Source: an uncultured Gammaproteobacteria bacterium
Lineage (GTDB): Bacteria; Patescibacteriota; Microgenomatia; 2-02-FULL-39-11
Assembly (NCBI GenBank): GCA_964354025.1
Contig: CAYGXQ010000004.1
Span: forward strand, 10,239 to 74,238
Length of the DNA: 64,000 nt
Direction of reading: 5' to 3'
Shown: piece by piece, positions 36,117 through 60,916 of the stretch
Numbering within the stretch: the stretch's first letter is position 1
How the letters are laid out: each line of letters begins with the position of its first letter
Position numbers and translations under genes: made by a program
Notes under the pieces: model-generated
What the model was told of the DNA's origin: nothing
Database searches by the model: none
Seen by the model: the letters and a program-made list of their open reading frames with translations, nothing else

Positions 36117-36183
36117 GATGTCAAGGATACTTATTCTATTCACTTTTTAAGGCGCTAAATAAGCACTTTTTACATTCGAATCT

Positions 36184-36299: not shown

Positions 36300-36367
36300 G
36301 GATTTGAGTGTAAAAAGCATATGCTATAATAAAGCAATCTTACAAAGAAAGGACGGTATGAGAACAA

Positions 36368-40805: not shown

Positions 40806-41939
40806 ATGCTTATTCCGCGCTTACTCACTGCCACTATTTTGGAGAAACTGAAGTTCTCAAATAAGGGAGTGATTATCTACGGAGCCAGGCAGGTGGGTAA
40901 GACCACGCTGGTAAATGAGGTTATCCGCTTGCTGGGCTTAAGGACTTTGACGGTAAATGGAGATCAAAGTCGTTTTATTGATATCTTTTCAAGCCGCGAT
41001 CTGGCAAAGATAAAATCTTTAACCGAAGGTTACGAATTGCTTTTCGTCGATGAGGCACAGAGGATTCCGGAAATAGGGATTGCCTTAAAAATCATTCTGG
41101 ATAATCTGCCTTCCTTAAAAGTACTGGTGACAGGTTCATCTTCTTTGGATCTGGCGAGCAAAATCAGCGAACCACTGACCGGTCGTGTCTGGAATTACCG
41201 TTTGTATCCGATTTCCTTTCAGGAACTAATGCAAAATCAAAATAAAGCTGAACTTGATACTACTTTGGAAGAAAGGCTGATATACGGGTCGTATCCGGAA
41301 GTATGCCTGATGATCGGTGATGCTCAAAAAAGGGAATATCTGCAAAATTTAAGCGATGCCTATTTATATAAAGATCTAATTGAATTCGGCGAGATAAAAA
41401 ATTCCTCCAAAATCAGGGATCTGGTGAAACTGCTGGCTTTTCAGATAGGCTCGCAGGTTTCTTTGTCGGAGATCGGCAGTCAACTCATGATGAGCAAAGA
41501 TACCGTATCAAGATATATTGATCTTTTAGAAAAATCAAACATTATTTTCCGCCTGAAAGGCCTTAGCCGTAATTTGCGGAAGGAAGTAGTGAAAATGGAT
41601 AAAATATTTTTCTATGATTTGGGAATAAGAAATATTGTGATTGATAATCTTAAACCTTTAAAAGACCGTATTGATACCGGTCAGCTTTGGGAGAATTTTC
41701 TGATAATCGAAAGAATGAAATCATTGGCCTACAGACAGGAATATGCCTCGATATATTTTTGGCGGACTTATACAGGCGCGGAATTGGATTACGTGGAAGA
41801 AAAAGAAGGGAAATTAAGCGGATTTGAATTTAAATTCGGAATAAAAACAGCTAAACCGCCCATCAGCTGGATGAAAACTTATCCCAAATCAGGGTTTAAG
41901 TGTATAAATAGGGACAATTACCTTGATTTTATCCTTTAA
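40806..41939 (+). CDS. COG1373-type AAA+ ATPase (AAA_14 + DUF4143)
   Basis: GARQVGKTTL (Walker A), LFVDEAQ (Walker B) and a C-terminal DUF4143-like region. Confidence 0.65.
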   Translation: MLIPRLLTATILEKLKFSNKGVIIYGARQVGKTTLVNEVIRLLGLRTLTVNGDQSRFIDIFSSRDLAKIKSLTEGYELLFVDEAQRIPEIGIALKIILDNLPSLKVLVTGSSSLDLASKISEPLTGRVWNYRLYPISFQELMQNQNKAELDTTLEERLIYGSYPEVCLMIGDAQKREYLQNLSDAYLYKDLIEFGEIKNSSKIRDLVKLLAFQIGSQVSLSEIGSQLMMSKDTVSRYIDLLEKSNIIFRLKGLSRNLRKEVVKMDKIFFYDLGIRNIVIDNLKPLKDRIDTGQLWENFLIIERMKSLAYRQEYASIYFWRTYTGAELDYVEEKEGKLSGFEFKFGIKTAKPPISWMKTYPKSGFKCINRDNYLDFIL

Positions 41940-44296
41940 TACCTGAAGGTATCCACTTTTATCACCTTCGTTGTTCCGCTTTCGAAGACCACTTTTCCAA
42001 GTTTCAAGACCTTTTCTTCATCAAGAGCCGGGTATTTTTGTCTTTCCAGAGTGCCTAAGAAAATATATTCCACATTGTATTTACGGAGAATCTCCTTGGT
42101 ATTTTCCATGTCTTTTGACTCGTAAATGGCGGCCACTTCCGGGATCCTTTTACCGGCCTCGTCATAACTGCCGCGCCAAAGCCATTCGTGGACCGGCCAG
42201 CCGACAATTGTTGGTAAACCAGTATATGCTGAGACCCGGTCAAAGTCGGTGTAAGAGTCACCGTTGGCCTCTACAATGACCGGTTGTTTGTTGCAGTCGG
42301 TTCCTTCACAGCTGATATTTTTATTCAGCCACATGATGGCGTTGTAATCATCCGGATACTGATTGATCATCCAGCTGATGCCGTTTAAGCTGTAATATTT
42401 TTGCAGGTTGCCGTAATAAGAGTTGATGGCAAATTGGGGATAGATGGCCACCAGGGTAAAAAGAATCAGAAAGCAAAAAGTATAAAGGATAAAACCGATT
42501 TTTCTTCCCCTGTCTTCTTTTTCCGCCCTGATCCGGAAGAAAATATAGGCGCTGGCGATCCCGAGCATCATGAAAGCCTGGTAGCCGAGCTTAAACATGG
42601 TGTTGGCCCGGTAATGGGCCGGATAGATATCCTTGATGTAGAAAAATTCCGGAAAAATTAAAAGAAGTGTAGAGATGAAGATCAGTAAACCAACAAAAAT
42701 ATCGATCGGATTAAGGTTTATAAGCGACGATAACTTATTTTTGAGTTCCCGAAGAGGACGGAGAGAACCGATTTTCGGCCAAATGACCAGCGTCAAAAAA
42801 CCGAAGACGTTAAAATAGAAAAATCCCCACAAGAGAGCCAGCATATAAAGAGGCGACTTCTGGCAATGGTCGGCTTCAAAAAGCAGCGGACCGATTTTTT
42901 TGTCAGCCAGGAATTTCGGCGCGCATAAAACGCCCAGACCGGAAACAAACGGCTTGAAGTTAAGTGAAAATGGAAGGTTAGCCACCAGGAAGAAAAACAG
43001 CAGGAAAAGCGAGGCGGAAAAGGTTTTGTATAAAAGAGCAAATAAAGTCACCTGCTGATCCGTTTTTTTCCTTCTGATGTTGACATAGAGAAAAACCAGA
43101 CCGCACAAAACCATATAAATCAAGCCGTCCCAGGCGTTGGTCATATACATGACCGCCAGGAGTGTTCCCAGTAAGATGATTTTATAAAAAGGGATGGAAG
43201 TATGGTTTTCGAAATCAGCAATGAATGAAGACAGTCTGGATGGGGCAGAAGAGATGTTTTCCAGCCGCTTCTCCTTGCGTTCTTCAATGACGATGGTTAA
43301 AAGCAAAGCAATGATCAAAAAGACCATCGGGATGTCTGAAACGTGTCCATGAAGGTCGGCTACCACAAATGAATAGATGGGAAACTCATGGATGGTAAAA
43401 GGAACAAAGCGGGTGGCGTTGGGATACCAGTACTTTTCCGGGTGATACCCGGCTTCTATTTTCCAAAAAGGGACAGGGTCTTCATTTGGGTAACCGTTGG
43501 TGAAGACATAAATTGTGTGTAAGTTGCCGCCGAGCGAAACCAAAAAAGCGGCCAACAGACCGACTATCAGCAGCTTCAGATTATCCCGGAAATTCAGGGG
43601 CATCTCCCGGACATTTTTCAGGTGTTTTAATTTCAGTTTCAGGTTTTCCCATAAGTGAAGCCTCAGGAAGTAATACAAATTCATAGCGATAGAGAAAGGC
43701 AGGGTAAAAGTGAAGGCGAAGAGGGTAGCGATCATCAGATTATAAGTAATTGCCGAGTCGATCCCGGCAATTTTTGTGAGGAAAGCGTTGATGTAGTGGC
43801 CGTAATAATAATAATTGATGAAATAGCCGCCGGTGTATTCCGGCGATTTGGTCAGCCACATATCAAGGGGCGGGAAGTAGGTGGTCCGCAGGATTGAATT
43901 AACGAAGCCGAAGTCCATATATTTTTCCAGGGAATGGATGGAAGGCTCATTGGCCCGGACATATGACCATAAAGAAAGAGTCAGGAGAAAAAGGCTTTCT
44001 TCAAGGATAATTAACCGCCAGGGAATTTTCGTTTGGCTGTTTTTATTTCTCAAAAACAAGTTAAATAAAGCAAATCCCACCAGAACGACGATGATCGTCA
44101 TTTTGGAAAAGGGGAGGATGTGGAAACTGCCCAGAAGCCAAATAAGGTATGAGGAAGACAGGATGCCGATGATTTTGGAGAAGATGTAGCCTTTATCGAG
44201 AAATTTGCGGAAAATGGAGAAGGTGATCGGGGTGAAAATGCCGCCGATGACGAAAATCGTCAGCCACCAGATTAAAATAGCTGAAACATCAGACAT
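41936..44296 (-). CDS. DUF2298/Chlor_Arch_YYY-family polytopic membrane protein (putative glycosyltransferase)
   Basis: 786 aa, many TM segments, and a YFINYYYYGHY motif matching the YYYxG hallmark of this family. Confidence 0.5.
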   Translation of the reverse strand: MSDVSAILIWWLTIFVIGGIFTPITFSIFRKFLDKGYIFSKIIGILSSSYLIWLLGSFHILPFSKMTIIVVLVGFALFNLFLRNKNSQTKIPWRLIILEESLFLLTLSLWSYVRANEPSIHSLEKYMDFGFVNSILRTTYFPPLDMWLTKSPEYTGGYFINYYYYGHYINAFLTKIAGIDSAITYNLMIATLFAFTFTLPFSIAMNLYYFLRLHLWENLKLKLKHLKNVREMPLNFRDNLKLLIVGLLAAFLVSLGGNLHTIYVFTNGYPNEDPVPFWKIEAGYHPEKYWYPNATRFVPFTIHEFPIYSFVVADLHGHVSDIPMVFLIIALLLTIVIEERKEKRLENISSAPSRLSSFIADFENHTSIPFYKIILLGTLLAVMYMTNAWDGLIYMVLCGLVFLYVNIRRKKTDQQVTLFALLYKTFSASLFLLFFFLVANLPFSLNFKPFVSGLGVLCAPKFLADKKIGPLLFEADHCQKSPLYMLALLWGFFYFNVFGFLTLVIWPKIGSLRPLRELKNKLSSLINLNPIDIFVGLLIFISTLLLIFPEFFYIKDIYPAHYRANTMFKLGYQAFMMLGIASAYIFFRIRAEKEDRGRKIGFILYTFCFLILFTLVAIYPQFAINSYYGNLQKYYSLNGISWMINQYPDDYNAIMWLNKNISCEGTDCNKQPVIVEANGDSYTDFDRVSAYTGLPTIVGWPVHEWLWRGSYDEAGKRIPEVAAIYESKDMENTKEILRKYNVEYIFLGTLERQKYPALDEEKVLKLGKVVFESGTTKVIKVDTFRY

Positions 44297-44352
44297 GATT
44301 CCATCATTATAAAGTCTTTTTCTTCCGTTGAAAAGAGATGATATTGACCTCT

Positions 44353-44751
44353 TCAGAGAAGCTTCACGAAGCCTGATTTTTTAGTTTTCTCAAAAAGTTT
44401 TTTATCAGCGGTGATTAGTTGGGTGTTCAGTCTTTTAGCGAGAAATATATAGGAGTAATCATAAAAACTGATGTTAACATCGTGAGCTTCATTAATTATC
44501 TTATTCCAATCTTGAAAGGTCAAGTCATGGTATGATAAAGGTAATTCTTCAAGAATTTTACCGGCCTGTTCAATTTTATCTTCTGAGTAGGGTTTATGAA
44601 AGAGAAGTGAGTTGCCTATCTCATAATAAAGGAGTCTGGGAACAGACACGGATATTTTTCTCTCTTTAATATCCGCAAATAAAACAAGGGCTTTTTCCGT
44701 TCCCTCTTCAATGATAAACCATTTAAAAATAACGGAAGAATCAAGTATCAT
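44353..44751 (-). CDS. vapC: PIN-domain toxin VapC
   Basis: 132 aa. MILDSSVIFKWF… has PIN acidic residues. It lies directly downstream of the antitoxin, 5 bp apart. Confidence 0.6.
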   Translation of the reverse strand: MILDSSVIFKWFIIEEGTEKALVLFADIKERKISVSVPRLLYYEIGNSLLFHKPYSEDKIEQAGKILEELPLSYHDLTFQDWNKIINEAHDVNISFYDYSYIFLAKRLNTQLITADKKLFEKTKKSGFVKLL

Positions 44752-44756
44752 TATTA

Positions 44757-45092
44757 CTATTTCTCATTCCGGTAATGTGTATGTGTCTTTAACCACTTTT
44801 TACCATAGCGTTCATCACGCATCTTGCGGATAAATTCGGTGGATGATAAACCACCAAAACCATTTTTATTTGATCCCCAAGTCTTCCGCCAGTTTTCAAG
44901 CATTTTTGAAACTCTTTCAAGACGATCTGCATGCTTCTTTTCTTCAATCTCTCTCTTTTTCTCCTCAAAAGGATACATCACCACCACGGGTTCATTTTGT
45001 CTCTCCACGATCATAGGTTCGCCGGTGGCAATCACCCGGTCAATGATTTCCCCGAATTTTTGCCTGAAGGTGAGAGCGCTGACGGTATTCAT
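44757..45092 (-). CDS. Phd/YefM-type antitoxin
   Basis: Start taken at MNTVSALTFRQKFGEIIDRVIATGEPMIVERQNEPVVVMYPFEE (YefM fold). The longer upstream ORF extension is probably not translated. Confidence 0.5.
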   Translation of the reverse strand: MNTVSALTFRQKFGEIIDRVIATGEPMIVERQNEPVVVMYPFEEKKREIEEKKHADRLERVSKMLENWRKTWGSNKNGFGGLSSTEFIRKMRDERYGKKWLKTHTHYRNEK

Positions 45093-45168
45093 TATGATAA
45101 TGATACTATCATATGATATATTATATATCAATTGCTTCCACGGTAACCCTCCACGAGTTTCCGAAAAT

Positions 45169-45272
45169 GTCATTGCGATCCGCCCGCTGGCGGAGAAGCA
45201 ATCCCGTGATGTTACAGTAATTCCTACGGGATCGCCACGGGACGCACCGTCTGGTGCATCCCTCGCGATGAC
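45169..45272. repeat. palindromic ~100-bp dispersed element (GTCATTGCGA…CCGCCCGCTGGCGG…GAAGCAATCCCGT…GGATCGCCACG…CTCGCGATGAC), copy A, intergenic
   Basis: Terminal inverted repeats GTCATTGCGA / TCGCGATGAC and an internal 14-bp palindrome. Shares the GAAGCAATCCCGT and GGATCGCCACG blocks with copies at 46587, 54249, 58407 and 59479. Confidence 0.7.
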
Positions 45273-45347
45273 AAAGTTTTGCCAAATCCTGAACGATTAC
45301 AACCAGACTTGTTTAATCAGGAAGCAGGCATGTTATAATTCTGGAAA

Positions 45348-45915
45348 TATGCGGAAGAAAATCAGGGTTGGTTTTGATTTTGACGGCGTGATTGCCTATA
45401 ACCCATTTCGGGTCTGTCGGGCGCCCCTAACCTTTTTCAAGAAAAGAATATTAGGTGCGCAGAAGTTGAAGTTTTGGTATCCGCGATCCCGCTGGCAGCA
45501 GATTTTTTGGATTATTCTCCATCAGTCAAGTGTCTTTCCGGCCAAAGGGATAAGCCTTTTTAGGGAGATGGTGGAGAAAGAGGTGATTGAAGCCCATATA
45601 ATTACCGGCCGTTACAGTTTCCTGGATGATCATCTGGTCAGATGGTTGGATAAATACAAATTAAAACATCTTTTTAAGACGATCAATGTGAATAAAAAAG
45701 ACGAACAGCCGCACTTGTTTAAGGAAAAAATGCTCAAAGAATATGACTTGCATTACTTCATAGAAGACAATCTGGATATTGTGACTTACCTTCACGGCCG
45801 ACAACGGACGAAGATCTACTGGATCTATAACCTGATCGACAGAAAACATCCGCATCCGTATAAATCACCGCATCTGGAACACGCGCTGAAAGAGATTGCG
45901 AAAAAAATAAAATGA
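45348..45915 (+). CDS. HAD-like hydrolase (tentative)
   Basis: MRKKIRVGFDFDGVIAYNP has a DxDGV motif I of HAD phosphatases. It lies in the 3' part of a longer ORF whose 5' part covers a palindromic repeat. Confidence 0.35.
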
Positions 45916-47114
45916 AAGTTCTTTTTTCCATCACCTACTACACTCCTTATGTCTCCGGATTGACTCTGTATGTCAAAAGGCTGGCTGAGGCGTTGGCAGA
46001 AAAGAGTAATCAGGTATCAGTGATCAGCTTTCAGCATGAAGAGGGATTGCCTTCTGAAGAGAAGATAAATAATATCAGGGTAGTGCGGGTTAAGCCGCTT
46101 TTTAAGATAAGTAAAGGTTTTGTTTCTCTTGGTTGGTTGACGAAGTGCTTCCGCGAGGTGAGGAAACATGAGACGGTGATTATTAATCTGCCGCAGTTTG
46201 AAGGCGTTACTGCGGCACTACTTGGAAAAATCTTCGGCAAAAAAGTCATATCCGTCTATCACTGTGAAGTGGTTTTACCCCGGGGATTTTCCAACCGGAT
46301 CATCAATTGGCTGTTAAACCGGTCAAATAAGATTTCCCTTGCTTTATCGGACACGGTTGTCACTTATACCGAGGACTTTGCCAGTCATTCAAAAATATTA
46401 CTGCCGTATCTCAAAAAAACCAAGTATGTTTATCCACCTATACCTTTGCCAAAGATTGATAAAAGAGTACAAAAAATGATCATGGAGAAAATCGGAAAAA
46501 CAGACTATGTCATCGGCGTGGCCGCGAGGTTAGCGGCGGAAAAGGGAATAGAGTATTTGCTTGAGGCTATACCACTAATACAAAATGTCATTGCGAGGAA
46601 CGAAGCGACGAAGCAATCCCGTGGGGGATCGTCACGCCCCGCCATGGCGGGGCTCGCGATGACATACTCGCCTTTTAAAATTATCATTGCCGGCTCTTTA
46701 GATCCAGTCGGTGAAACAAGTTATAAAAAGAAAATATTACAATTAGTTGAGAAATATAGAGACTACATCATCTTCTTAGGAGAGTTGAAGGAAGAGGAGA
46801 TGGGAGCTTTTTATTCTTTGCTTGATGTCTTGGTGTTGCCGTCCATTAATTCCACCGAGGCTTTCGGCATGGTGCAGGTGGAAGCAATGATGATGGGCGT
46901 GCCGGTGGTGGCAACTAATCTTCCGGGAGTCAGGGTACCGATCCAAAAAACAGGGATGGGGACGGTTGTGCCCGTCAAAAACAGCCAAAAACTGGCGGAA
47001 GCGATTGTAGAAGTCTTAAAAAACAAAAAAGAATATCTTAAAGACAAAGAGATTGTAAAGAGAGAATTTTTGTTTTCTAAGACGGTTGATTTTTACGGTC
47101 AATTATTGACTTGA
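45912..47114 (+). CDS. GT4-family glycosyltransferase (with in-frame repeat-element insertion)
   Basis: The C-terminal VLPSINSTEAFGMVQVEAMMMGVPVVATNLPG matches the GT4 EX7E region. Residues ~227-252 (VIARNEATKQSRGGSSRPAMAGLAMT) are encoded by a 77-bp palindromic element. Confidence 0.75.
   Translation: MKVLFSITYYTPYVSGLTLYVKRLAEALAEKSNQVSVISFQHEEGLPSEEKINNIRVVRVKPLFKISKGFVSLGWLTKCFREVRKHETVIINLPQFEGVTAALLGKIFGKKVISVYHCEVVLPRGFSNRIINWLLNRSNKISLALSDTVVTYTEDFASHSKILLPYLKKTKYVYPPIPLPKIDKRVQKMIMEKIGKTDYVIGVAARLAAEKGIEYLLEAIPLIQNVIARNEATKQSRGGSSRPAMAGLAMTYSPFKIIIAGSLDPVGETSYKKKILQLVEKYRDYIIFLGELKEEEMGAFYSLLDVLVLPSINSTEAFGMVQVEAMMMGVPVVATNLPGVRVPIQKTGMGTVVPVKNSQKLAEAIVEVLKNKKEYLKDKEIVKREFLFSKTVDFYGQLLT
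46587..46663. repeat. palindromic dispersed element, copy B (77 bp), in-frame inside the GT4 CDS
   Basis: GTCATTGCGAGGAACGAAGCGACGAAGCAATCCCGTGGGGGATCGTCACGCCCCGCCATGGCGGGGCTCGCGATGAC. Confidence 0.7.
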
Positions 47115-47155
47115 TATATTTTTTGGTTATTGACAATAACCAAAAATAGAATATA

Positions 47156-48556
47156 ATGGTTAATATGATTAACCAAATTCCGGAAAGCACCAAAAGATTC
47201 CTGAGTTTGCAGAATCCGTGGTTTTCCGCGCCGGTTGAGATTATCAAGGAGGATGAAAAGCTTAAAGAGCTGGACAGTCAGCATTTCCAATGGCAGCCGG
47301 AAATTCTGGATGAAATTTCATACCAGCCGGGCGTGTTTGTTCTGCGCGGTCCCCGCCAGGTAGGCAAAACTACTGTTGTCAAATTATTGATTAAAAAGTT
47401 ATTGCTTGAAAAAAAAGTACCTCCAAGTTCTGTTTTTTATTATTCCTGCGAGGATCTGCAGAATTTTCAGGATTTAAACAACCTGATTTTCAGTTTTTTT
47501 GATCTGGCCGGTTCATTGCCGGCGGGTAAAAGATATATTTTTCTGGATGAGATTTCCTTTGTCAGGGAATGGCAAAGAAGCATTAAGTCATTCGTGGAAA
47601 GCGCGGGGGGGAAGAATATTTTTTTCTTTTTAACAGGTTCTTCTACTATTGACCTTGAATTTTCAGGTGAAAGATTACCGGGCAGGAGGGGAGCCTACAC
47701 CAGAGATTATTTATTTTTACCCCTGACTTTTGGAGAATTTGTGAAATTAACCTCACCGGAACTGTTTCCACCCGAAGAAAAGAAACAATTATTGATTTTG
47801 CCGAAATTGCGCGCCAAACTTCATCAATATCTTCTGACCGGCGGTTTTCCGAAAGCGATCAACAATTACTTCAAAAACAGAAACATTTCGCAGTCTATTT
47901 ATGAACTTTATATTTCCTGGGTGTTGGGCGATATCCATAAATTGAATAAATCGGATAAGTTTTTAAATAATTTACTGGCCGTATTGCAAAAACATGAGTC
48001 TTCGACGTTTTCGTACCAGTCTTTAGCCAGAGAAAGCGGCATTATTTCCCATCTGACGGTCCAGGATTATTTGGCGGTATTAGAAAAAATGTTTGTCCTT
48101 TTTCCGATTGACGCTTTTTCCATTGCCGAGAAAAAACCGTCTTATAAAAAAAATCATAAGAATTATTTTTATGATCCTTTCATCAAAAATTGCCTGAATG
48201 CCAGCGCCTTTGGTTTAACGGAGAATATCGCCAACTATATTAATGATCAAAAAGAAGAAGAGGATTACTGGTCAAAAAACGCGGAGAATTTGGTCGCTTC
48301 GCACCTTAAACGGGACAGTGCCCAATTATACTGGGGATCAATAGGCGAGAGGGAAGTGGATTTCGTCGTTTTCAAAGACGGAAGTTACAGTTATTTTGAG
48401 GTTAAACAGAGCGCGAGAGTCGAATTTGAAGATTTTTCATATTTTTTCACCGCGATGCCAAACAGCCGCCTGACAGTGATTTCCAAGAATGACTTTTGGG
48501 AAAAGAAAAATCTGAAAGTTATCCCTTTGGAACTGTTTCTTCTGAAAAAATTTTAA
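47156..48556 (+). CDS. COG1373-type AAA+ ATPase (second paralog)
   Basis: GPRQVGKTTV Walker A, then YIFLDEISF. Same architecture as the gene at 40806-41939. Confidence 0.65.
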   Translation: MVNMINQIPESTKRFLSLQNPWFSAPVEIIKEDEKLKELDSQHFQWQPEILDEISYQPGVFVLRGPRQVGKTTVVKLLIKKLLLEKKVPPSSVFYYSCEDLQNFQDLNNLIFSFFDLAGSLPAGKRYIFLDEISFVREWQRSIKSFVESAGGKNIFFFLTGSSTIDLEFSGERLPGRRGAYTRDYLFLPLTFGEFVKLTSPELFPPEEKKQLLILPKLRAKLHQYLLTGGFPKAINNYFKNRNISQSIYELYISWVLGDIHKLNKSDKFLNNLLAVLQKHESSTFSYQSLARESGIISHLTVQDYLAVLEKMFVLFPIDAFSIAEKKPSYKKNHKNYFYDPFIKNCLNASAFGLTENIANYINDQKEEEDYWSKNAENLVASHLKRDSAQLYWGSIGEREVDFVVFKDGSYSYFEVKQSARVEFEDFSYFFTAMPNSRLTVISKNDFWEKKNLKVIPLELFLLKKF

Positions 48557-48747
48557 GATAATTTTATGCAAGTAAGCTACGAGAGTAATCGTCCTGTTAA
48601 AATCAAACGAATTTGGTATTATCTGCAGTAAAAATATTGCAAGCGGCAAATTTTAAGATAAAAATCAAACCACGCAAAGAAGTAAACAATCTCGGATTAC
48701 TCTATGCGGTAAGATCAGATAAATAACAACTGGTATATTATTTTTCA

Positions 48748-49545: not shown

Positions 49546-49684
49546 ATAAGAGCTTTTTATAGCTAGTCCTAGTCTTTTGGAATCATGGAGAAAATGAAAG
49601 GAAATCTGTCTTATACAAGAGTGAAATAATTTTATTATCCTTCAAGAACTATTGCTTTTCGGGCAGTGGAATATCAATAAAGCC

Positions 49685-51355: not shown

Positions 51356-51368
51356 TTATGAGATACTA

Positions 51369-53036: not shown

Positions 53037-53517
53037 GAAATCAGTTGAATTTATTAATTAACAGCATCTTAATTGTCCTCTAGGAGTTTCTGACTATTAA
53101 TATTAGATTAATATAAAAATCCAAATAAATAAAGGGGGATGGTTTTTTATTCCCGATGAGGATACCTTATCAATATGGTCAGGAATGGGGATAGTCTATT
53201 CCTATTTTCCAGACATTCTTTTCTAAAAAAGCCTCGATAGTTTGTCTGTTTGCTTTATTGATAAGGTTTGAATGAGAAAGTTTACTGGTTTTTGCGTAGT
53301 CGGCAAGAGTAATAATCCTTTTGCCTTCCAAATATGCTAATCGCTTATGATAGCTATTGGTAAGCGCTTTTCCTACTATTTCTTCCATAACGGCAGATAT
53401 ACCTTTCTTCACGATTTTGTCAATATAACCGTGAAAAATAGGTATAATTTGTTACTTATTCACGATTTTGGCTATAATTCTCTTAATATTTACTAAAAAA
53501 GTTTGACTCCAGTCAAG

Positions 53518-54222: not shown

Positions 54223-54248
54223 AATATTTAAGAGCCTGTTTGAGAAGC

Positions 54249-54346
54249 GTCATTGCGAGGCCGCAGCCGAAGCAATCCCGTGATACTATAGTAATTCCAA
54301 CAGGATCGCCACGTTCTCCGCCAGCTGGCGGATCGCTCGCGATGAC
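54249..54346. repeat. palindromic dispersed element, copy C, intergenic
   Basis: GTCATTGCGAGGCCGCAGCCGAAGCAATCCCGTGATACTATAGTAATTCCAACAGGATCGCCACGTTCTCCGCCAGCTGGCGGATCGCTCGCGATGAC. Confidence 0.7.
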
Positions 54347-54413
54347 ATTTTTTTGACTTTTCAAACAGGTTCTAACGCGATATTTTTGATATTTGCACTT
54401 TGATTTTGAAGTG

Positions 54414-56348
54414 TCATAAAGTAACAGAAAGAACTTTAAGATAATCTATAGTCTTGACCTTTTTGAAGATAATTACCTTCGGGTGGTCGTAGACGGTAAA
54501 AGTCTCATCAGCATAATCATCCACAAAACTGATGCCTGTTTGGTTGCATTCCTGCGTTTTCAGAGCTACTATTCCGTATCTGACGAAGGGAGGGGTAAGA
54601 CATAATTTAATTCCAGGTATGGGCAGATTCGGGCGGGAAGTAAATTCAGCCACTTTTTCAAAGCCCAAAGATCCATCAAATAACGCATTGTAATATTTAA
54701 TGGTAATCGGATATTTCTGGGGATAGGTCATGGTGGATCCATAAAGCCGGTTGCTGGTTAAGATCACGTAATCGGTTTTTTCCAAATCAGCGGAGATTTT
54801 TCTCCATTTTTCTTCGTTATCCGGCCAGTACAAGGGAAACTGCACTTTTTGATATTGTTCATGGATGTAATTTCCAAGACTCACGGGGAGGCCGTCGTCC
54901 CATTCTTCGCTTGAGACGGTTACGCCTGCCGGTAAGTTTTTGAATATCCAATATGAAGCCTCTACTCTTGAATTTAATCTTGAATAAATCGTAACAAAGG
55001 ATAGGGGATATACAATTATTAATAACCCAATTACCAAATAACCCAATAATCCAATTTTATATTTATTGATGATTCGGACAACAAAATATCCGGAAAGAAT
55101 AGCTAGAAAAGGATAGATCGGGAAGAAATATCGGAGAGCCTTGACGAATTGCCCGCCTTGGTAAATGAATAATATGAGGATCCAAAGAGTCGATAAAAAG
55201 AGTATAAAGTGGGAAGTATTAAGTATTTGGGATAATTTTTTCTTCTGAAATAGTAAACGTATTATACATAATACTTGATACATAATACTTAATACCGCGA
55301 GTATTCCCAGAGGTATTCCTAAGCCCCAAAACAACATATTTTTCAAAGGAAAAAGGTAAGGTTTAGTGGTAATCCATTGAACCGCGGGAGGGAATCCGCC
55401 GGTTGTATCGTCAAAAGATTTTAGCTCTTTCCAATTTTGCAGAATTTTTGGGTTTAAAGAGAAAGTGATCAGAGCAGAGTTGGAGAAAAGATACGGTTGA
55501 GCCAGACGGACGGTGAAATAGGAAGAAACAAAGAACATAAAACATATAACAAAAAACAAAAAAAGATTTCTATTCTTAATCAAAAAGAATAATAGACTCA
55601 GTCCGATGATTGGGAGAAATAAGACGGCGGTGATTTTCGAGGCAATGGCCAGACCAAACGCAATTCCCAGGAGAGTTGTAAGTTTTAAGTTGCAGGTTAT
55701 AAGTTTATTACCTTTTTGAGTGTTAGAGATTATTTTGATGAGAAGATAAAAAGATAGAGCGATGAAAAAAGTCAGATAGGTTTCCACGGCGAAGAAATGG
55801 GAGAGTTGGATAGGAAGGACCGACGCCGCATAGAAGAACATCGCCAATAATGGAAAAATCCAATTTTTTGGTAATGTCATTCCGAGTCCGCCAGCTGGCG
55901 GATCCGAGGAATCTTCCAACGATGGAAGATCCCTCCACGCGTCCCGATCTGATCGGGACTTGGTCGGGATGACGCTTTTTGCGATGAGCAAAACGAGAAT
56001 CACCGTTCCCAGATCGAAAAAGCCTGAAAGCGACCTTCCGATAAGCGTCAGGTTTCCGTAATCTCCTTTCCCAAGGCCTTCAGCCACCCATTTGGTGAAA
56101 AAGATGGGGAAGGTGCCGTAGACGAAAAAGCCGTAGCCGCGGTTATGAGGATTGAGGGGAGAAGTGGCAGTATCAAGATATTCCGTCAGATTCTTTGGCC
56201 AGGCGATACCGTTGGCCACCATGGTCAAAAACCTTTCGTCAGGATGAAGGTGCTGGTCCTGGTCCCAGTTGACGCCGTAGAGGCGGAAGAATGAGGCTAA
56301 AAATAAAATTCCTAAAGCTACTATTATTATTTTATATTTTTCTCTCAT
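54414..56348 (-). CDS. GT-C-fold membrane glycosyltransferase-like protein (with in-frame repeat-element insertion)
   Basis: 644 aa, polytopic, with an N-terminal loop HLHPDERF. It shares a C-terminal …LGFEKVAEF…TFTVYDHP… with 56363-58375. Residues SRSDRDAWRDLPSLEDSSDPPAGGLGMT are encoded by a 98-bp palindromic element. Confidence 0.45.
   Translation of the reverse strand: MREKYKIIIVALGILFLASFFRLYGVNWDQDQHLHPDERFLTMVANGIAWPKNLTEYLDTATSPLNPHNRGYGFFVYGTFPIFFTKWVAEGLGKGDYGNLTLIGRSLSGFFDLGTVILVLLIAKSVIPTKSRSDRDAWRDLPSLEDSSDPPAGGLGMTLPKNWIFPLLAMFFYAASVLPIQLSHFFAVETYLTFFIALSFYLLIKIISNTQKGNKLITCNLKLTTLLGIAFGLAIASKITAVLFLPIIGLSLLFFLIKNRNLFLFFVICFMFFVSSYFTVRLAQPYLFSNSALITFSLNPKILQNWKELKSFDDTTGGFPPAVQWITTKPYLFPLKNMLFWGLGIPLGILAVLSIMYQVLCIIRLLFQKKKLSQILNTSHFILFLSTLWILILFIYQGGQFVKALRYFFPIYPFLAILSGYFVVRIINKYKIGLLGYLVIGLLIIVYPLSFVTIYSRLNSRVEASYWIFKNLPAGVTVSSEEWDDGLPVSLGNYIHEQYQKVQFPLYWPDNEEKWRKISADLEKTDYVILTSNRLYGSTMTYPQKYPITIKYYNALFDGSLGFEKVAEFTSRPNLPIPGIKLCLTPPFVRYGIVALKTQECNQTGISFVDDYADETFTVYDHPKVIIFKKVKTIDYLKVLSVTL
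55876..55973. repeat. palindromic dispersed element, copy D (variant), in-frame inside the GT-C CDS 54414-56348
   Basis: GTCATTCCGAGTCCGCCAGCTGGCGGATCCGAGGAATCTTCCAACGATGGAAGATCCCTCCACGCGTCCCGATCTGATCGGGACTTGGTCGGGATGAC. Confidence 0.6.
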
Positions 56349-56362
56349 ACTTTATCAGTTTA

Positions 56363-58375
56363 TCATTTTACAAAGAGGAGTCTATATTCTTCCGCCGTCA
56401 TAGGCTTGACTTTCTTATAGATCCTAATCACCGGATGATCAAAGACGGTATACGTCTCCTCAGCCTGTTCATCCGGAAGCGTCCAGCGTAAAGCGTTAAG
56501 CGTTAAGCTGGGGAAAGAACTGAACTCGGCCACTTTTTCAAACCCTAGGTTACCGGAGAAAAGAAGCCGGTAATATTTGGCTAAGCGGGGATATTTGGTC
56601 AGAATCTTCGGATGATTGGCAAAAAGCCGGCGGGAGGGGATGAAAATATAATCGGCTTTCTCCAGATGGGTGAAAAGCTGGTCAAAAATCGCCGGATTTT
56701 CGTCCATATGATAAAAATCAAAAGAGATGACCGGTACATTATTCCATTTTTCCGAAAGTGGTCGGTCCGGATCATCATTAAGAAGACCAAGAGGGATATC
56801 CACAACGTTTGCTGTTTCAGAAAGGACATAGGAATTACCGGGAATATTTCTATAGATCCAGCGGGAGGCAGTCAACCGGCTGTCTTCGCTGGCATAGATA
56901 GACATGAAAGCGACCCCTGGTAAAAAGCTCAAAAAGCAAAACGCAAAGATCAAAAATTTAATAAGTGGTCGGGATGATAGGAACTGATAGAATTTATACA
57001 AGAGATACCCTGCAAAAATATAGAAGAAAGCAAATATCGGTGTCATGAATCTGGTCCATTTGGCGAAAAGAAAAGCGTTGGGGATAAAGTAAATTAAAAA
57101 TGAAACCGTTATGATAAATAATAATAGAAACTCGTTCCGTTTCGTATTCTTTGTATAATTTGAAATTTGAGTTTTGAAATTTTTATTAAATTTGAAAATT
57201 TTTAATTTGAATTTTGATTGAAAATTGAAAATTGAAAATTGAAATTTTTTTCCTAGATCAATAATAAAAATAACAACTGTAATTAGAAACCCAAGGGAAC
57301 CAAGAATAAATACCGGCCATCCAAGCGTATATGGAAATACCTTTTGTGCCTGAAAGACAATCGGGACGGTATTGACAAACTGCCTGGTATAAAAAGCTTC
57401 GTACCGGCCGGTGGCCACATCGCTTTCGTAGCCGAAGACCGCGCTTTTGAAGCTTTCTTTTTCCACCAGATTATACGGAGAGGAAACGGCGGTGAAGAAG
57501 AGGGAACCGGCAAGTAATAATAATCCAATAATCAAATAAACCCCTGCCTGCCGGCAGGCAGGCAATAACCCAATCAGCCAATTTTTCCTCTTTTTTTTAA
57601 AAAATATAAATAATTGCATCATAATTGCCAAACCGGGCGGGACGAAAAAGAATAAACCGGTGAATTTGGAGCCGAAAGCCAGGCCGATGGTTAAAGATAA
57701 AAGTATTAAGTATTTAGTATTAAGTATTAGGTATTTTCGGAAAGATTTTTTAAGTGGATTTTCTAATAATTTCATTGAAAGATATATAGAGGAGAGGAAG
57801 AAGTAAGAGAGTAAAGATTCGGTGGTGCCGAAGTGGGCCGCCTGGATGAGTCCCGGAGAAAAAGAACTGGCAAGGGCGGCTAAGAGGCCAAATTTGAGAC
57901 CCGTCAATTTCCTGGTAATCAGATAAACGAGATAAACGGAAGCAACCGAAGAGAAGGCTGACCAGAAACGCAGCCAAAAGATGGCCGCCGGGAAATTGGT
58001 GGCAAAAGCTTCACGGTCATCCATTATTTGAGCTGAATAAATGTTGAAAACAGGTTTTGTCACCTGGTTGGAAAGATAGGCCAGATAGAGAGGGAATTGG
58101 CCGTAGGCGAAAAAATGGGGATTAAGGCTGCATAAATTAGCGTCTAGCGGATAGCGTTTAGCGTCTAGCTGGTAAGGAAAGAATTGAGATTTTAGACAAG
58201 TGGAGATAGAGGATAGATTTTTGGGAAGGCGAAACTGCATGATTGCACCGGCCATATTGCGTTCGTCTGGGTCAAAAAAATACGGATAATCGCGCATCAG
58301 GTTATAGAAGCGGAGAAAGCAGGAAATAATTATAATAGCTATTAAAAATAGTTTTATTTTCTTTAATATTTTCAT
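56363..58375 (-). CDS. GT-C-fold membrane glycosyltransferase-like protein (paralog)
   Basis: 670 aa with an FFDPDERN loop motif and C-terminal NLGFEKVAEFSSFP…ETYTVFDHP paralogous to 54414-56348. Contains in-frame simple repeats (gaaaatt x n; taagtatt x n) and an in-frame TAGCGTCTAG element. Confidence 0.45.
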   Translation of the reverse strand: MKILKKIKLFLIAIIIISCFLRFYNLMRDYPYFFDPDERNMAGAIMQFRLPKNLSSISTCLKSQFFPYQLDAKRYPLDANLCSLNPHFFAYGQFPLYLAYLSNQVTKPVFNIYSAQIMDDREAFATNFPAAIFWLRFWSAFSSVASVYLVYLITRKLTGLKFGLLAALASSFSPGLIQAAHFGTTESLLSYFFLSSIYLSMKLLENPLKKSFRKYLILNTKYLILLSLTIGLAFGSKFTGLFFFVPPGLAIMMQLFIFFKKKRKNWLIGLLPACRQAGVYLIIGLLLLAGSLFFTAVSSPYNLVEKESFKSAVFGYESDVATGRYEAFYTRQFVNTVPIVFQAQKVFPYTLGWPVFILGSLGFLITVVIFIIDLGKKFQFSIFNFQSKFKLKIFKFNKNFKTQISNYTKNTKRNEFLLLFIITVSFLIYFIPNAFLFAKWTRFMTPIFAFFYIFAGYLLYKFYQFLSSRPLIKFLIFAFCFLSFLPGVAFMSIYASEDSRLTASRWIYRNIPGNSYVLSETANVVDIPLGLLNDDPDRPLSEKWNNVPVISFDFYHMDENPAIFDQLFTHLEKADYIFIPSRRLFANHPKILTKYPRLAKYYRLLFSGNLGFEKVAEFSSFPSLTLNALRWTLPDEQAEETYTVFDHPVIRIYKKVKPMTAEEYRLLFVK

Positions 58376-58406
58376 TAAAATTAAAACATGACTTACGTAA
58401 TTTTAT

Positions 58407-58505
58407 GTCATTGCGAGGCTAAGAGCCGAAGCAATCCCGTTGGGCAAACTGGTATCCTACGGGATCGCCACGCTCTCCGCCAGCTGGCGGATCGCTCGCG
58501 ATGAC
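58407..58505. repeat. palindromic dispersed element, copy E, intergenic
   Basis: GTCATTGCGAGGCTAAGAGCCGAAGCAATCCCGTTGGGCAAACTGGTATCCTACGGGATCGCCACGCTCTCCGCCAGCTGGCGGATCGCTCGCGATGAC. Roughly 90% identical to copy C in the outer blocks. Confidence 0.7.
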
Positions 58506-58517
58506 AAATAACCAATT

Positions 58518-59438
58518 TCAGAGGACATATAGGATGGTAATGATTATTACTCCCCAACAACCCATGGAAACAATTAAAGGAATATCAGTTGTCACGATCT
58601 TTTCCGGTTGTTCCGCATCGGCTCCGCTGTAGGCCAGTTGGGCGTAGCGCATGAGGATGTAGATGATAAAAGGGATAGTGATTATCATCCATTTCCGATC
58701 CACTGCTTGAGGCATGACGGTTATCAGGAAATCTTTGACGGGTGTATTGAATTGCGGCGGCTCCTCAAGAAAAGCAAAAAGTGAATAAGCGATGATCGAA
58801 GCTGATCCGAACATGGAAGTATAAAAATCCAAAAGCCTTTCCTGATACTGGAAGAGAGCCGGTCTGGTTTTTGAGCCTTCCCGCAGCAGTTCGGCGTGCC
58901 TTTTTGTGGCGGCAATAAAGATAGCGATAAAAATAATGGTCAAAGACAGCCAGAAGGGGAGGTGGAAGCCGGTCAGGATTTCGCCGGCAAAAGCCCTAAG
59001 CGTGAAAGAGAAAGAGATGCTTAAGATATCCAAAATAGCGTATTTTTTGAAAACCAGCGAATAGAGAACATGGAGAAGGATAAAGGAAAAAGCAATCATA
59101 AAAAAACCGGGCGAAATAAGGATTGCGGAAAGCAGGGCAAAAAGGGCTAAAAGGAAGGCAATTTCAACAGCCGTGTTCAAAGGCAAGTCGCCTGAGGCAA
59201 GCGGCCTTTTTTTCTTGAGGGGGTGAAGCCGGTCGTATTTTAAGTCGATAATGTCGTTGAAAAGATACGAGGATGAAGAAAGGGCGCAAAAGATAAAAAA
59301 TCCGGATAAGGTATGCAATAGATAAGGACCGTCAAAAATTTTGCCGTTGAAGATTATTGCCGCAAAAAGGATCAGGTTCTTGATCCACTGGTTTGGCCGC
59401 AAAGCTTTGAATAAAATCCGCCAGTTTAACAAATTCAT
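58518..59438 (-). CDS. UbiA-family prenyltransferase (decaprenyl-phosphate phosphoribosyltransferase-like)
   Basis: NDIIDLKYDRLHPLKKKRPLASG matches the NDxxDxxxD UbiA motif and resembles the DPPR-synthase subfamily. ~8 TM. Confidence 0.7.
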   Translation of the reverse strand: MNLLNWRILFKALRPNQWIKNLILFAAIIFNGKIFDGPYLLHTLSGFFIFCALSSSSYLFNDIIDLKYDRLHPLKKKRPLASGDLPLNTAVEIAFLLALFALLSAILISPGFFMIAFSFILLHVLYSLVFKKYAILDILSISFSFTLRAFAGEILTGFHLPFWLSLTIIFIAIFIAATKRHAELLREGSKTRPALFQYQERLLDFYTSMFGSASIIAYSLFAFLEEPPQFNTPVKDFLITVMPQAVDRKWMIITIPFIIYILMRYAQLAYSGADAEQPEKIVTTDIPLIVSMGCWGVIIITILYVL

Positions 59439-59478
59439 ATTAGTTTAGTAGTTATGCAATGAATGTTGATTTAGATTT

Positions 59479-59517
59479 GTCATTGCGATCCGCCGGCTGG
59501 CGGAGAAGCAATCCCGT
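59479..59517. repeat. palindromic dispersed element, copy F (truncated 5' half)
   Basis: GTCATTGCGATCCGCCGGCTGGCGGAGAAGCAATCCCGT, then unrelated sequence. Confidence 0.5.
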
Positions 59518-59585
59518 CCGAGATTGCCTAAGCCCTGTCAGTTCTTATTTTAAGTGACGGTCATTTGAATATCAACCTGGATTAG

Positions 59586-59660
59586 CTATTAGTCGTTAGC
59601 TTTTAGTCTTTAGCAATCTGATGTTACTAATGACCAACGACAAACAACTAAAGACCAATA
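59586..59660. repeat. GTCGTTAGC/TTTAGTC palindromic element
   Basis: TTAGCTATTAGTCGTTAGCTTTTAGTCTTTAGCAA…CTAAAGACCAA. A related copy lies at 63261-63372 downstream of rho, and a fragment sits in-frame in the GT2 gene (53865-53896). Confidence 0.55.
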
Positions 59661-60916
59661 ATTTTTGATACTTCATCGCCTAATTCTATAGCGTAATTCG
59701 TCCCCCTGTCCCAGGGATAAACCATATCCATATTGGCCAGATAAACGTCTTGGATAGGGGTAACGAAATCTGGTTTGGTTTTTGAATAATTGACGGAGAA
59801 AACCGGTTGGGCGGAGGGGGAACGGAATAGTTGTAGGCCCGCCTTCGCTAAAGCTTCAGAGGGTAAATTGGGATTTATTTTTTTTAAATAGGGTAAATAG
59901 AGCTTGAAAAGTTGCTCTTTGGACATTGCCAGATACGGGTGGTCGTCGGGTAAATAGTTGCCGACGTAGGTTAAATGTTTGTTGCCGTAATATTTTTTAT
60001 CAACCAAATTGGTTTGCTGGATGACGGAGATAAAGGGAAACTGCCGGTCATTGATGTTCAGCCAGTAAGTCTCCGGCAGGATTTTTTCTGCTACGATAAT
60101 CAGCAGAGTGAGGGCGGTCAGGTGGGGGATGGAGCTTAGTTGTTTCTTATAGCTTGCCGGGAGCCGGGGATAGAGTTTTATAAATTCGCCGGACGGGGCA
60201 GTAAAAATAATTTTGTCAAACTCTGCCGTGTTTGCCGGGTGAAAAGGAGTATTAAAGAGAACTTTGGCGCCATTATTGGTGATATTTTTCACCAATGTAT
60301 CGAGAAAAGTTTGGTATCCGCCTGACAGATAAACCAACTTCATGGTCCTTTTTTTGATTCTCGCCCAAAACCAGGCCATGTTTACCAGTTTTGCGAATCC
60401 GCCGGCCGGCGGACCGAATTTACCGTCAAAAAGCGGTTTCCAGATGACCCGGAAAGCATCCCGGCCGTAATATTTCTCAACGGTTTGATATGCCGTTTCT
60501 TTTTCCAAAGATAGGCCGGTCTTTTTCGGCAGTAATTTGAGATATAAGGTAGCCAGACCGGTCCGAAGACGGTTGGGAAAACTGATTGGGGAAAAGGCGA
60601 GCACATGAGCTGGTGTATTGAATGGATAGATACGGCCGTGATAATAAATTGCCGTTTGTGTTTTGGAAAAAATGATAAGATCAGACAGTTGCAGTTCTTC
60701 CAGCAATCTCATTGTCGAAACATCGTTGGTAAACCAGTGGTGATAATGCTGTTCAACCGGCCATGTCCATGAGGGGAGCTTAAAGGTAGCCGAAAGTCCG
60801 CCGGCAAATTTTTCTTTTTCAAAAACGGTGACTTTGTGATGTCTTGACAGTTTAAAAGCGGCGGTAAGTCCGGTAAAGCCGGCACCAATGATGGCAATTT
60901 TCAAAGGACTCGTCAT
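59648..60916 (-). CDS. Rossmann-fold FAD/NAD(P)-binding oxidoreductase (amine-oxidase/UDP-galactopyranose-mutase-like)
   Basis: The N-terminal KIAIIGAGFTGLTAAFKL…FEKEKFAGG is a dinucleotide-binding GxGxxG…E…GG pattern. Contains an in-frame CCGCCGGCCGGCGG palindrome (60399-60412; FGPPAGGF). Confidence 0.55.
   Translation of the reverse strand: MTSPLKIAIIGAGFTGLTAAFKLSRHHKVTVFEKEKFAGGLSATFKLPSWTWPVEQHYHHWFTNDVSTMRLLEELQLSDLIIFSKTQTAIYYHGRIYPFNTPAHVLAFSPISFPNRLRTGLATLYLKLLPKKTGLSLEKETAYQTVEKYYGRDAFRVIWKPLFDGKFGPPAGGFAKLVNMAWFWARIKKRTMKLVYLSGGYQTFLDTLVKNITNNGAKVLFNTPFHPANTAEFDKIIFTAPSGEFIKLYPRLPASYKKQLSSIPHLTALTLLIIVAEKILPETYWLNINDRQFPFISVIQQTNLVDKKYYGNKHLTYVGNYLPDDHPYLAMSKEQLFKLYLPYLKKINPNLPSEALAKAGLQLFRSPSAQPVFSVNYSKTKPDFVTPIQDVYLANMDMVYPWDRGTNYAIELGDEVSKIIGL

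Follow-up and report, generated by a model that had tools for sequence, protein, structure and literature searches.

What does a bacterium of the candidate phyla radiation (CPR) build with a long cluster of glycosyltransferase genes, and from which sugar donor? The question is raised by a 64-kb stretch of DNA (the whole of which is called the window here) in which positions 41936-61335 hold a glycosylation locus made up of a UbiA-superfamily enzyme, an FAD oxidoreductase (the flavoenzyme), two pairs of membrane glycosyltransferases (GTs) of the GT-C type, a GT2, a GT4, a HAD-like protein, a methyltransferase, a DUF2298 protein and a small Ig-like membrane protein. CPR bacteria, or Patescibacteria, are ultra-small episymbionts whose surface and pili mediate attachment to the host, and to our knowledge the glycobiology of their envelope is essentially unstudied. 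We consider it rather probable that the locus serves extracytoplasmic glycosylation in a Gottesmanbacteria-like bacterium (Microgenomates, CPR), as a cluster conserved within its lineage, and that it is organized as modules, each pairing the synthase of a lipid-linked monosaccharide donor with a GT-C transferase. Our best reading is that a polyprenyl-phosphate-linked pentofuranose donor would feed the GT-Cs, because the UbiA enzyme resembles decaprenyl-phosphate 5-phosphoribosyltransferase (DPPR synthase, DPPRS) and its gene and GT-C genes occur in tight linkage. What this analysis observed directly is which genes are present, the families they belong to, the conservation of residues, the folds and the synteny statistics; from these we infer the chemistry, the flow between modules and the acceptor.

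Results

The UbiA enzyme

The UbiA protein encoded at 58518-59438 (minus strand) carries the motif NDIIDLKYDRLHPLKKKRPLASG, and the resemblance to DPPR synthase proposed for it in the initial annotation is confirmed. Searched against all Protein Data Bank (PDB) sequences, it matched best Mycobacterium tuberculosis Rv3806c (8j8j, E 4e-33), the next family being digeranylgeranylglyceryl phosphate (DGGGP) synthase at E 4.6e-5; three NCBIfam DPPRS models matched it with E values from 1e-41 to 1e-58, whereas other UbiA families reached 1e-16 at best, and it thus does not cluster with the quinone or archaeal-lipid prenyltransferases. Pfam assigns it to the generic UbiA family only.

The residues of Rv3806c that bind Mg2+, ribose, the 5-phosphate, pyrophosphate (a K/R cluster) and the lipid phosphate have been listed, and those binding phosphoribose are not common to ordinary UbiA enzymes (PMC10994848). 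When these functional residues were transferred by HMMER alignment, ten of the twelve tested proved identical (R22, K28, Y70, N73, D77, K87, R90, Y138, K143 and K191), while Y157 of Rv3806c is replaced by F145, a variant that also occurs in some mycobacteria (PMC10994848), and Q135 by H123; all twelve positions, His and Phe substitutions included, are invariant in 121 out of 121 relatives. The R/E pair of loop IV (R180, E183), which was the pair mutated in ORF15 of Citrobacter, is retained, K208 is not conserved (P193), and where prenyltransferases have their second Asp-rich motif, the protein carries the KRxAE motif of DPPRS. The protein is therefore placed with DPPRS on the strength of the PDB and NCBIfam scores and of the conserved residues specific for phosphoribosyl pyrophosphate (PRPP); by homology, it is predicted to be a polyprenyl-phosphate 5-phosphoribosyltransferase making polyprenyl-phosphate-ribofuranose-5-phosphate from PRPP.

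An exact look-up returned no identical entry on record; the closest relatives are a protein of a 'Candidatus Microgenomates bacterium' (97% identity) and many Gottesmanbacteria proteins (60-75%), some relatives bearing the database name '4-hydroxybenzoate polyprenyltransferase'. Neighbourhoods were compared in 80 metagenome loci for UbiA and in 85 loci for the flavoenzyme. In the window, 143 nt separate the UbiA stop from the start of the gene for the 670-aa GT-C, and among relatives of at least 60% identity a GT-C of the 670/644 type lies directly downstream of UbiA in every contig that extends far enough (27/27), with the flavoenzyme directly upstream in 19 out of 23. At 46-50% identity, the order becomes PilO, Big_13, UbiA, GT-C, GT-C and GT4, so that UbiA holds the slot taken elsewhere by the flavoenzyme; loci in which UbiA is flanked by the flavoenzyme on one side and by the GT-C pair on the other are all of the Gottesmanbacteria type.

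The GT-C membrane proteins

The invariant downstream partner of UbiA, a 670-aa GT-C (56363-58375, minus strand), matches Pfam PMT (39 bits) and PMT_2 (31 bits), and its relatives are named 'GT39 family' by NCBI; from this linkage, it is proposed as a candidate pentofuranosyltransferase. Both this protein and the flavoenzyme are 100% identical to proteins on one NCBI contig. Its AlphaFold2 (AF2) model (pLDDT 85.6) retrieved AglB, STT3, ArnT, PglB, Pmt4 and ALG9/12 in Foldseek at probability 1.0, with TM-scores of 0.43 or lower, and AftD and EmbA/B at E 0.03-0.5. No single GT-C protein matched PDB sequences, and a profile of the 670-aa family alone reached yeast Pmt1/Pmt2 (2e-5) and AglB (1e-3). 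All 33 sequences compared retain D37-E38, the motif of loop 1.

Next to it lies a second GT-C of 644 aa (54414-56348, minus strand), a full-length paralogue by BLASTP (26% identity, E 2e-46) that has the PDER motif and the C-terminal domain in common with the 670-aa protein; most related loci have kept both genes. Judging from the AF2 model and the family profile, the two are GT-C enzymes nearest the protein-modifying PMT and oligosaccharyltransferase (OST) families and not mycobacterial arabinosyltransferases: an Emb/Aft-type identity was rejected, AftD and EmbA/B lagging far behind AglB, STT3, ArnT and PMT. Of the structural relatives put forward for comparison in the initial annotation, PMT and ArnT were thus recovered as close matches and Emb/Aft were not.

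A second module is suggested by the genes that follow. The GT2 at 53518-54222 (minus strand; Pfam Glycos_transf_2, E 1e-34) is a candidate polyprenyl-phosphate hexose synthase without a transmembrane (TM) segment, whose best PDB match is the Dol-P-Man synthase of Pyrococcus furiosus (5mlz, E 1.2e-17 over residues 1-217), followed by ArnC and GtrB, and whose best NCBIfam match is AglJ (118 bits, under the equivalog cutoff). Behind it stand two tandem GT-Cs of the PMT_2 type on the minus strand, of 555 aa (51369-53036; PMT_2 40.4 bits, cutoff 26.1) and 556 aa (49685-51355; 24.7 bits, slightly under the cutoff), which are 61% identical and both have a GDD motif, placed in the 555-aa protein after the early TM segments; they show no BLAST relationship to the 670/644 pair. 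In another locus (L001), the GT2 gene overlaps that of a downstream 555-like GT-C, which supports a second pairing of donor synthase and GT-C; in the window, the 77-aa ORF at 53179-53412, with no assigned function, separates the two genes that overlap directly in L001. Repeat families D1, D2 and D5 were noted for the 555/556 region, where the 3' 300 nt of the two genes (49685-49984 vs 51369-51668) are 93% identical as compared with some 61% for the proteins otherwise, suggesting that gene conversion has recently acted on the part encoding the C-terminal extracytoplasmic domain.

The flavoenzyme

Upstream of UbiA, the flavoenzyme (59648-60916, minus strand) belongs to NF005560/PRK07233 (370 bits, cutoff 252), a family named merely 'hypothetical protein', and has Pfam matches to the Amino_oxidase, NAD_binding_8 and DAO families only, with no predicted TM segment. 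In sequence searches of the PDB it gave weak matches, confined to protoporphyrinogen oxidase (PPOX) and amino-acid oxidases, while its AF2 model (pLDDT 94.5) matched best rice phytoene desaturase (PDS; 5mog, TMq 0.82, E 1.5e-24), then PPOX and monoamine oxidase. The initial annotation had likened it to UDP-galactopyranose mutase (UGM, Glf). This identity was rejected by Pfam (which found neither a GLF nor an FAD_binding_4 domain), by NCBIfam (no UGM match) and by PDB sequence and fold searches, in which UGM appears from about rank 28 (E 1e-17), as against E 1e-24 for PDS and PPOX. An identity as DprE1 was rejected as well, the fold being that of the Amino_oxidase/PDS group without the VAO-type FAD_binding_4 domain. 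The enzyme does cluster with PDS and PPOX, an outcome that had been coupled to the lack of any sugar-pathway context; such a context does exist, in about 80 glycosylation loci.

At least 596 relatives were found among Genome Taxonomy Database (GTDB) species representatives of Microgenomates (Gottesman-, Levy-, Shapiro-, Davies-, Roizman-, Blackburn- and Chisholmbacteria) and Chloroflexota. The typical Microgenomates order, complete or partial in at least 29 loci, comprises a PilO-like protein, a 112-aa protein, an Ig-like Big_13/fn3 protein of about 470 aa, the flavoenzyme, 670-like and 644-like GT-Cs, a GalE-like short-chain dehydrogenase/reductase (SDR; in about nine loci), the HAD-like protein and DUF2298. 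In 14 Chloroflexota loci identified by tblastn (L037, L042, L048, L051, L058-L062, L064, L069, L079, L081, L082), a gene for LPG_synthase_TM, a flippase-like protein, precedes the flavoenzyme, with start and stop overlapping in several (e.g. L069), and genes for UDP-glucose dehydrogenase (Ugd) or phosphoglucomutase lie downstream; no match to this LPG_synthase_TM partner was found in the 64-kb window.

The flavoenzyme is thus always accompanied by lipid-linked-sugar machinery, with no fixed link to ribose. Enzymes of related fold have long isoprenoids or planar hydrophobic molecules as substrates. Because the context is not bound to ribose and because of the substrates of these relatives, two candidate roles are kept for an enzyme whose most likely substrate, judging from its neighbourhood, is the lipid-linked donor: by analogy with DprE1, it may oxidize the sugar and so convert ribose into another pentose, or, as the fold would allow, it may alter the saturation of the polyprenyl carrier. 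Literature searches returned no papers on PRK07233 and nothing on a PDS-like polyprenol reductase.

Upstream Ig-like proteins and the probable acceptor

The flavoenzyme start is overlapped by 4 nt by the stop of a gene (60913-61335, minus strand) for a 140-aa membrane protein with one Ig-like domain (Pfam Big_1, E 1e-10) and an N-terminal hydrophobic segment, a candidate acceptor or accessory protein. In L001, L003, L006-L009, L011 and most of the L087-L120 loci, a counterpart of this gene immediately precedes that of the flavoenzyme, and with it included the conserved cluster reaches 61335. The corresponding proteins of sister lineages are larger, with an N-terminal anchor, Ig-like domains, tails rich in Pro and Thr and a further anchor at the C-terminus, and are accompanied by a small Pro/Thr-rich protein. 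In the at least 29 Microgenomates loci (L004, L005, L012-L085; e.g. L005:7449-18532), PilO-like pilus-assembly genes and the genes of two Pro/Thr-rich proteins with a membrane anchor come immediately before the cluster, and in L006 and L011 the flavoenzyme is followed by a PilB-like ATPase. Together with the PMT/AglB-like GT-Cs, these upstream proteins favour O-glycosylation of surface proteins or pili, for which the arabinosylation of the Pseudomonas aeruginosa pilin is a precedent; the acceptor is probably a secreted or membrane-anchored surface protein, as far as gene neighbourhood and enzyme family can tell.

GT4, HAD-like, DUF2298 and methyltransferase genes

On the plus strand, a gene for a 188-aa HAD-like protein (45349-45915), a candidate phosphatase, runs with its stop over the start of the gene for a cytoplasmic GT4 of GT-B fold (45912-47114; Pfam Glycos_transf_1, Glyco_transf_4), itself conserved in L009, L078, L084, L085 and L139-L165. 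The HAD-like protein had no Pfam, NCBIfam or PDB match, even with a profile; its alignment shows four conserved motifs (GxDxD, S/T-G-R, K and DDD), and its relatives number 151 among 1.8 billion representatives. It is syntenic with DUF2298 and GT4, and in nine out of the ten longer relatives scanned (e.g. P0372, P0374, P0376, P0380, P0385, P0420, P0448) GT4 domains are fused C-terminally to the HAD-like region; these fusions imply that its primary partner is the GT4. Such a fusion is a Rosetta-stone link, and the arrangement recalls pairs of sugar-phosphate synthase and phosphatase.

The 786-aa polytopic DUF2298 protein (41936-44296, minus strand; TIGR03662 'Chlor_Arch_YYY', 477.7 bits, cutoff 300.25; PF10060, E 4e-95) is encoded by the final gene of the Microgenomates cluster, a conserved position, and stands downstream of flavoenzyme and GT-C genes in at least 27 loci. 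It has a soluble C-terminal domain and an NYYYYG motif of which N161, Y162 and Y163 are invariant, as are E124, D128, H303-E304 and D314xH316. A profile search of the PDB found no matches and a literature search nothing useful, while hhalign related it to the 670-aa GT-C family with 35% probability; it may be a further lipid-linked-sugar transferase. Lastly, the class I methyltransferase dependent on S-adenosylmethionine (48748-49545, plus strand; Pfam Methyltransf_23/11/31) is weakly conserved in related clusters, with a 30%-identical homologue in the same cluster of L009 and L092.

Locus layout and the remaining window

According to the ORF listing, Pfam and NCBIfam, every gene named in the initial annotation is an intact ORF of the family assigned to it; that description had missed the Big_1 gene, which is syntenic in relatives, the HAD-like ORF, and the interrupting genes and repeats. 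Among the relatives, L009 (Gottesmanbacteria GW2011_GWA2_43_14) carries the Big_1, flavoenzyme, UbiA, 670/644-type GT-C, methyltransferase, GT4, HAD-like and DUF2298 genes, without the GT2 and the 555/556 pair, and L001 and L087 carry GT2 and a 555-type GT-C. The gene set, whose core recurs in one genome and whose GT2 part recurs in the others, is therefore not a chance assembly. The interruptions consist of a PIN toxin and Phd/YefM antitoxin pair (44353-45173, minus strand; Pfam PIN, PhdYeFM_antitox), inserted between the DUF2298 and HAD-like genes and not in the pathway, and of two AAA_14/DUF4143 ATPases identified by Pfam, one within the cluster and probably outside the pathway (47156-48556, plus strand) and one at its edge (40806-41939); none of them occurs in the syntenic clusters of relatives.

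The window also holds a repeat resembling a miniature inverted-repeat transposable element (MITE), built on the 16-nt palindrome TCCGCCAGCTGGCGGA with flanks gtcattgcga...gaagcaatcccgt and counting nine copies of its core against 0.01 expected, most of them in intergenic gaps of the cluster; sites lie at 45168-45281, 54269-54355, 58428-58514, 59478-59517, 13323-13362, 55876-55910 and 440-455. Two repeat-derived insertions are in frame, one of about 25 aa in the 644-aa GT-C gene (55876-55910) and one of about 23 aa in the GT4 gene (about 46590-46660); both ORFs stay open, and both insertions are absent from homologues (L001, L007, L009, L084, L085). A copy of the palindrome within the 23S rRNA gene (33797) was rejected as a repeat element, being without the flanks and probably native rRNA sequence. 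Degenerate short direct repeats of the TTAGCGTCTAG type are intergenic and, in addition, occur twice inside the 670-aa GT-C gene (11554-11626, 32932-32999, 56476-56507, 58137-58168, 59582-59613).

The remainder of the window consists of housekeeping genes, including RuvABC, PPDK, PEPCK, Rho, RadA and a 23S-5S rRNA pair. The rRNA region (32855-36300) comprises a tRNA, a 23S rRNA of 3049 nt (vs 2925 nt in the model) and a 5S rRNA; the 64 kb contain no 16S gene, an unlinked rRNA arrangement, and the 23S gene may have a small insertion. At 23545-30266, a radical-SAM/SPASM protein and a Fic-MerR fusion protein are encoded beside a 1308-aa protein in which GNAT, at the N-terminus, is the sole domain.

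Discussion

Proposed mechanism

In the reading that we favour, the UbiA enzyme would move 5-phosphoribose from PRPP onto polyprenyl phosphate at the cytoplasmic face, as its residue conservation with Rv3806c suggests; the 5-phosphate would then be removed, a step for which the HAD-like protein is a possible candidate, and the resulting polyprenyl-phosphate-pentofuranose would be flipped across the membrane, where the two downstream PMT/AglB-like GT-Cs, implicated by gene linkage and fold, would pass the pentofuranose to an outside acceptor. The flavoenzyme would act in the cytoplasm on the lipid-linked donor. In the second module, the Dol-P-Man-synthase-like GT2 would make a polyprenyl-phosphate-hexose for the tandem PMT_2 paralogues, and the GT4 with its HAD-like partner, the methyltransferase and DUF2298 would belong to the same conserved cluster. 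Candidate acceptors would be the upstream Ig-like protein here and the Pro/Thr-rich Ig-like proteins in sister lineages. Between the two sugars contemplated in the initial annotation, pentofuranose is retained as the best reading, and nothing points to galactofuranose.

Several observations weigh against this reading. The UbiA protein scores below the equivalog cutoffs of all three DPPRS models (197.7 vs 234 bits for NF008977, 196.2 vs 207 for NF008978 and 140.6 vs 474 for NF008976), although the first two are near misses consistent with a divergent DPPRS subfamily, and Q135 of Rv3806c, which contacts the ribose O3, is replaced by His throughout the family. The GT-Cs resemble PMT and OST, which transfer hexoses or oligosaccharides, and not known pentofuranosyltransferases. 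No GtrA, SMR, MATE or Wzx flippase was found by Pfam among the ORFs of the locus, nor a PAP2 phosphatase or DprE1/DprE2, and the whole 64-kb window has no GalE-like SDR; its only transporter resembling lipid-sugar flippase superfamilies is an EamA/DMT protein encoded beside a WbsX-like glycosyltransferase (20778-22858), 28 kb from the cluster. The sole phosphatase candidate, being GT4-fused in relatives, may serve a different step, and its action on ribose-5-phosphate is only a possibility. Furthermore, the locus is broken by the toxin-antitoxin pair, the ATPases and the repeat elements, with genes on both strands, and the co-expression of all its parts is putative. Finally, the flavoenzyme/GT-C/DUF2298 cluster occurs in many lineages without a nearby UbiA, and some UbiA relatives stand alone amid housekeeping genes; these two facts imply that the GT-Cs need not depend on the UbiA product, while the solitary relatives also imply that lineages lacking UbiA in the cluster may encode it elsewhere.

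Comparison with known systems

Three-component systems for extracytoplasmic pentofuranose transfer, made up of a polyprenyl-phosphate phosphoribosyltransferase (PPPRS), a flippase and a GT-C, have been described (Kelly et al. 2024, PMC11127046); what had been called an unexplored pathway is therefore unexplored for CPR bacteria, and not as a general type of system. In Citrobacter youngae O1/O2, the components are the PPPRS ORF15, the MATE flippase ORF14 and the GT-C ORF12 of family GT136 (PMC11127046). As in that system, a UbiA-family phosphoribosyltransferase gene stands here beside a GT-C gene, and by analogy a lipid-monophosphate pentofuranose donor would be used outside the membrane; a counterpart of the ORF13 epimerase may be seen in the GalE-like SDR of some cluster relatives (L099, L121). 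Unlike in Citrobacter, the UbiA protein has no fused HAD phosphoribose-phosphatase domain, a MATE or SMR flippase is missing from the locus, the GT-Cs, assigned by Pfam to PMT/PMT_2 (GT39-like), come as a paralogue pair instead of singly, the flavoenzyme is an additional and usual upstream partner, and the host is a CPR bacterium whose acceptor is probably a protein and not an O-antigen.

The mycobacterial decaprenyl-phospho-arabinose pathway (Rv3806c DPPRS, Rv3807c phosphatase, DprE1/DprE2, Rv3789 and Emb/Aft GT-Cs) begins with a homologous enzyme in which the catalytic, PRPP-binding and lipid-phosphate-binding residues are conserved, likewise has a flavoenzyme beside the synthase and GT-Cs as end users, but relies on a VAO-fold DprE1 whereas the flavoenzyme here has the amine-oxidase/PDS fold; moreover, neither DprE2 nor a PAP2 phosphatase is found in this locus, and its GT-Cs are not Emb/Aft-like. 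Also comparable is the D-arabinofuranosylation of pilin in P. aeruginosa Pa5196/PA7, performed by a PPPRS homologue, DprE1/E2 homologues and the GT-C TfpW: there, too, a DPPRS-type enzyme supplies a GT-C for a surface protein (a type IV pilin), as we propose by analogy, and in sister Microgenomates the homologous cluster follows PilO-like genes, with a PilB-like ATPase in L006/L011. In contrast to P. aeruginosa, the cluster of the window is not beside pilus genes and has no DprE1/E2 homologues. The second module recalls the Dol-P-Man and Und-P-hexose systems (Dol-P-Man synthase with PMT; GtrB with GtrA and a Gtr GT-C; ArnC with ArnT; archaeal AglJ/AglS), given that the GT2 is nearest Dol-P-Man synthase, AglJ, ArnC and GtrB and that the GT-Cs are PMT/PMT_2 with AglB, ArnT and Pmt as nearest structures; it differs in the missing GtrA-type flippase, in a GT2 without TM helices and in the presence of a PRPP-dependent donor synthase in the same cluster. 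What sets this locus apart from known pentofuranose systems is thus the combination of PMT-like GT-Cs, no recognizable flippase, phosphatase or epimerase, a distinct flavoenzyme, and an added Dol-P-Man-type module together with GT4/HAD-like and DUF2298 genes.

Alternative explanations

The same donor chemistry might instead serve to build or decorate a glycopolymer of the cell wall or envelope, either an arabinan- or ribofuranan-like polymer or side chains of the O-antigen type. Known DPPRS/PPPRS systems mostly modify polysaccharides, e.g. mycobacterial arabinan and the Citrobacter O-antigen, and the presence of several GT-Cs with a GT4 and DUF2298 would suit a polymer; however, the GT-Cs are nearest the protein-modifying PMT and AglB/STT3 enzymes, the invariant upstream neighbours are Ig-like, Pro/Thr-rich surface proteins and pilus genes, and the locus has no Wzx, Wzy or ABC genes for polysaccharide export, so that we regard this destination as unlikely, if well worth keeping in mind.

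Less probable still, to the point that we would be surprised if it held, is that the locus is a mosaic of modules adjacent by chance, in which the GT-Cs use solely the hexose supplied by the GT2, in the manner of PMT-like O-mannosylation, and the UbiA product is destined elsewhere, e.g. for a phosphoribosyl lipid of the membrane. The clusters lacking UbiA, the solitary UbiA genes, the interruption of the locus by mobile genes and its split over both strands, and the PMT-like character of the GT-Cs are all points in its favour. Chance adjacency is nevertheless hard to reconcile with a 670-type GT-C directly after UbiA in all 27 contigs, with the distant relatives in which UbiA immediately precedes the same GT-C pair with no GT2 nearby (L139, L144, L153, L156-L165), or with the repetition in L009 of the gene set of the window except for GT2 and the 555/556 pair.

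That UbiA is an ordinary aromatic or lipid prenyltransferase (for menaquinone or ubiquinone, haem O or an archaeal-type lipid) and the flavoenzyme a desaturase of the same isoprenoid, neither having a role in glycosylation, would agree with the generic Pfam assignment, the '4-hydroxybenzoate polyprenyltransferase' names and the phytoene-desaturase-like fold, but is largely refuted, and most improbable, given a DPPRS placement by more than 40 orders of magnitude in family-model and PDB searches, the KRxAE motif in place of the second Asp-rich motif, the invariant PRPP-binding residues and the location of both genes within glycosyltransferase clusters in roughly 150 loci.

Implications

Under the pentofuranose-donor reading, the cluster predicts that PRPP is spent on a lipid-linked pentofuranose that PMT/AglB-like enzymes would attach outside the cell, and it would connect three further elements with pathways of lipid-linked sugars: a widespread uncharacterized flavoenzyme family, DUF2298, and the GT4 with its HAD-like partner. 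As a tentative extension, about which we remain rather doubtful, NF005560 may be a previously unrecognized class of enzymes acting on lipid-linked donors, either replacing DprE1 in function without homology to it, by oxidizing or epimerizing polyprenyl-phosphate-ribose to another pentofuranose, or serving as a bacterial saturase of the polyprenyl carrier that gives dolichol-like carriers for PMT/AglB-like GT-Cs, and which might, together with UbiA, account for a CPR-wide pentofuranose O-glycosylation of pili and surface proteins. If the flavoenzyme were indeed an analogue of DprE1 or a carrier saturase, it would represent a new type of reaction in polyprenyl-phosphate glycobiology.

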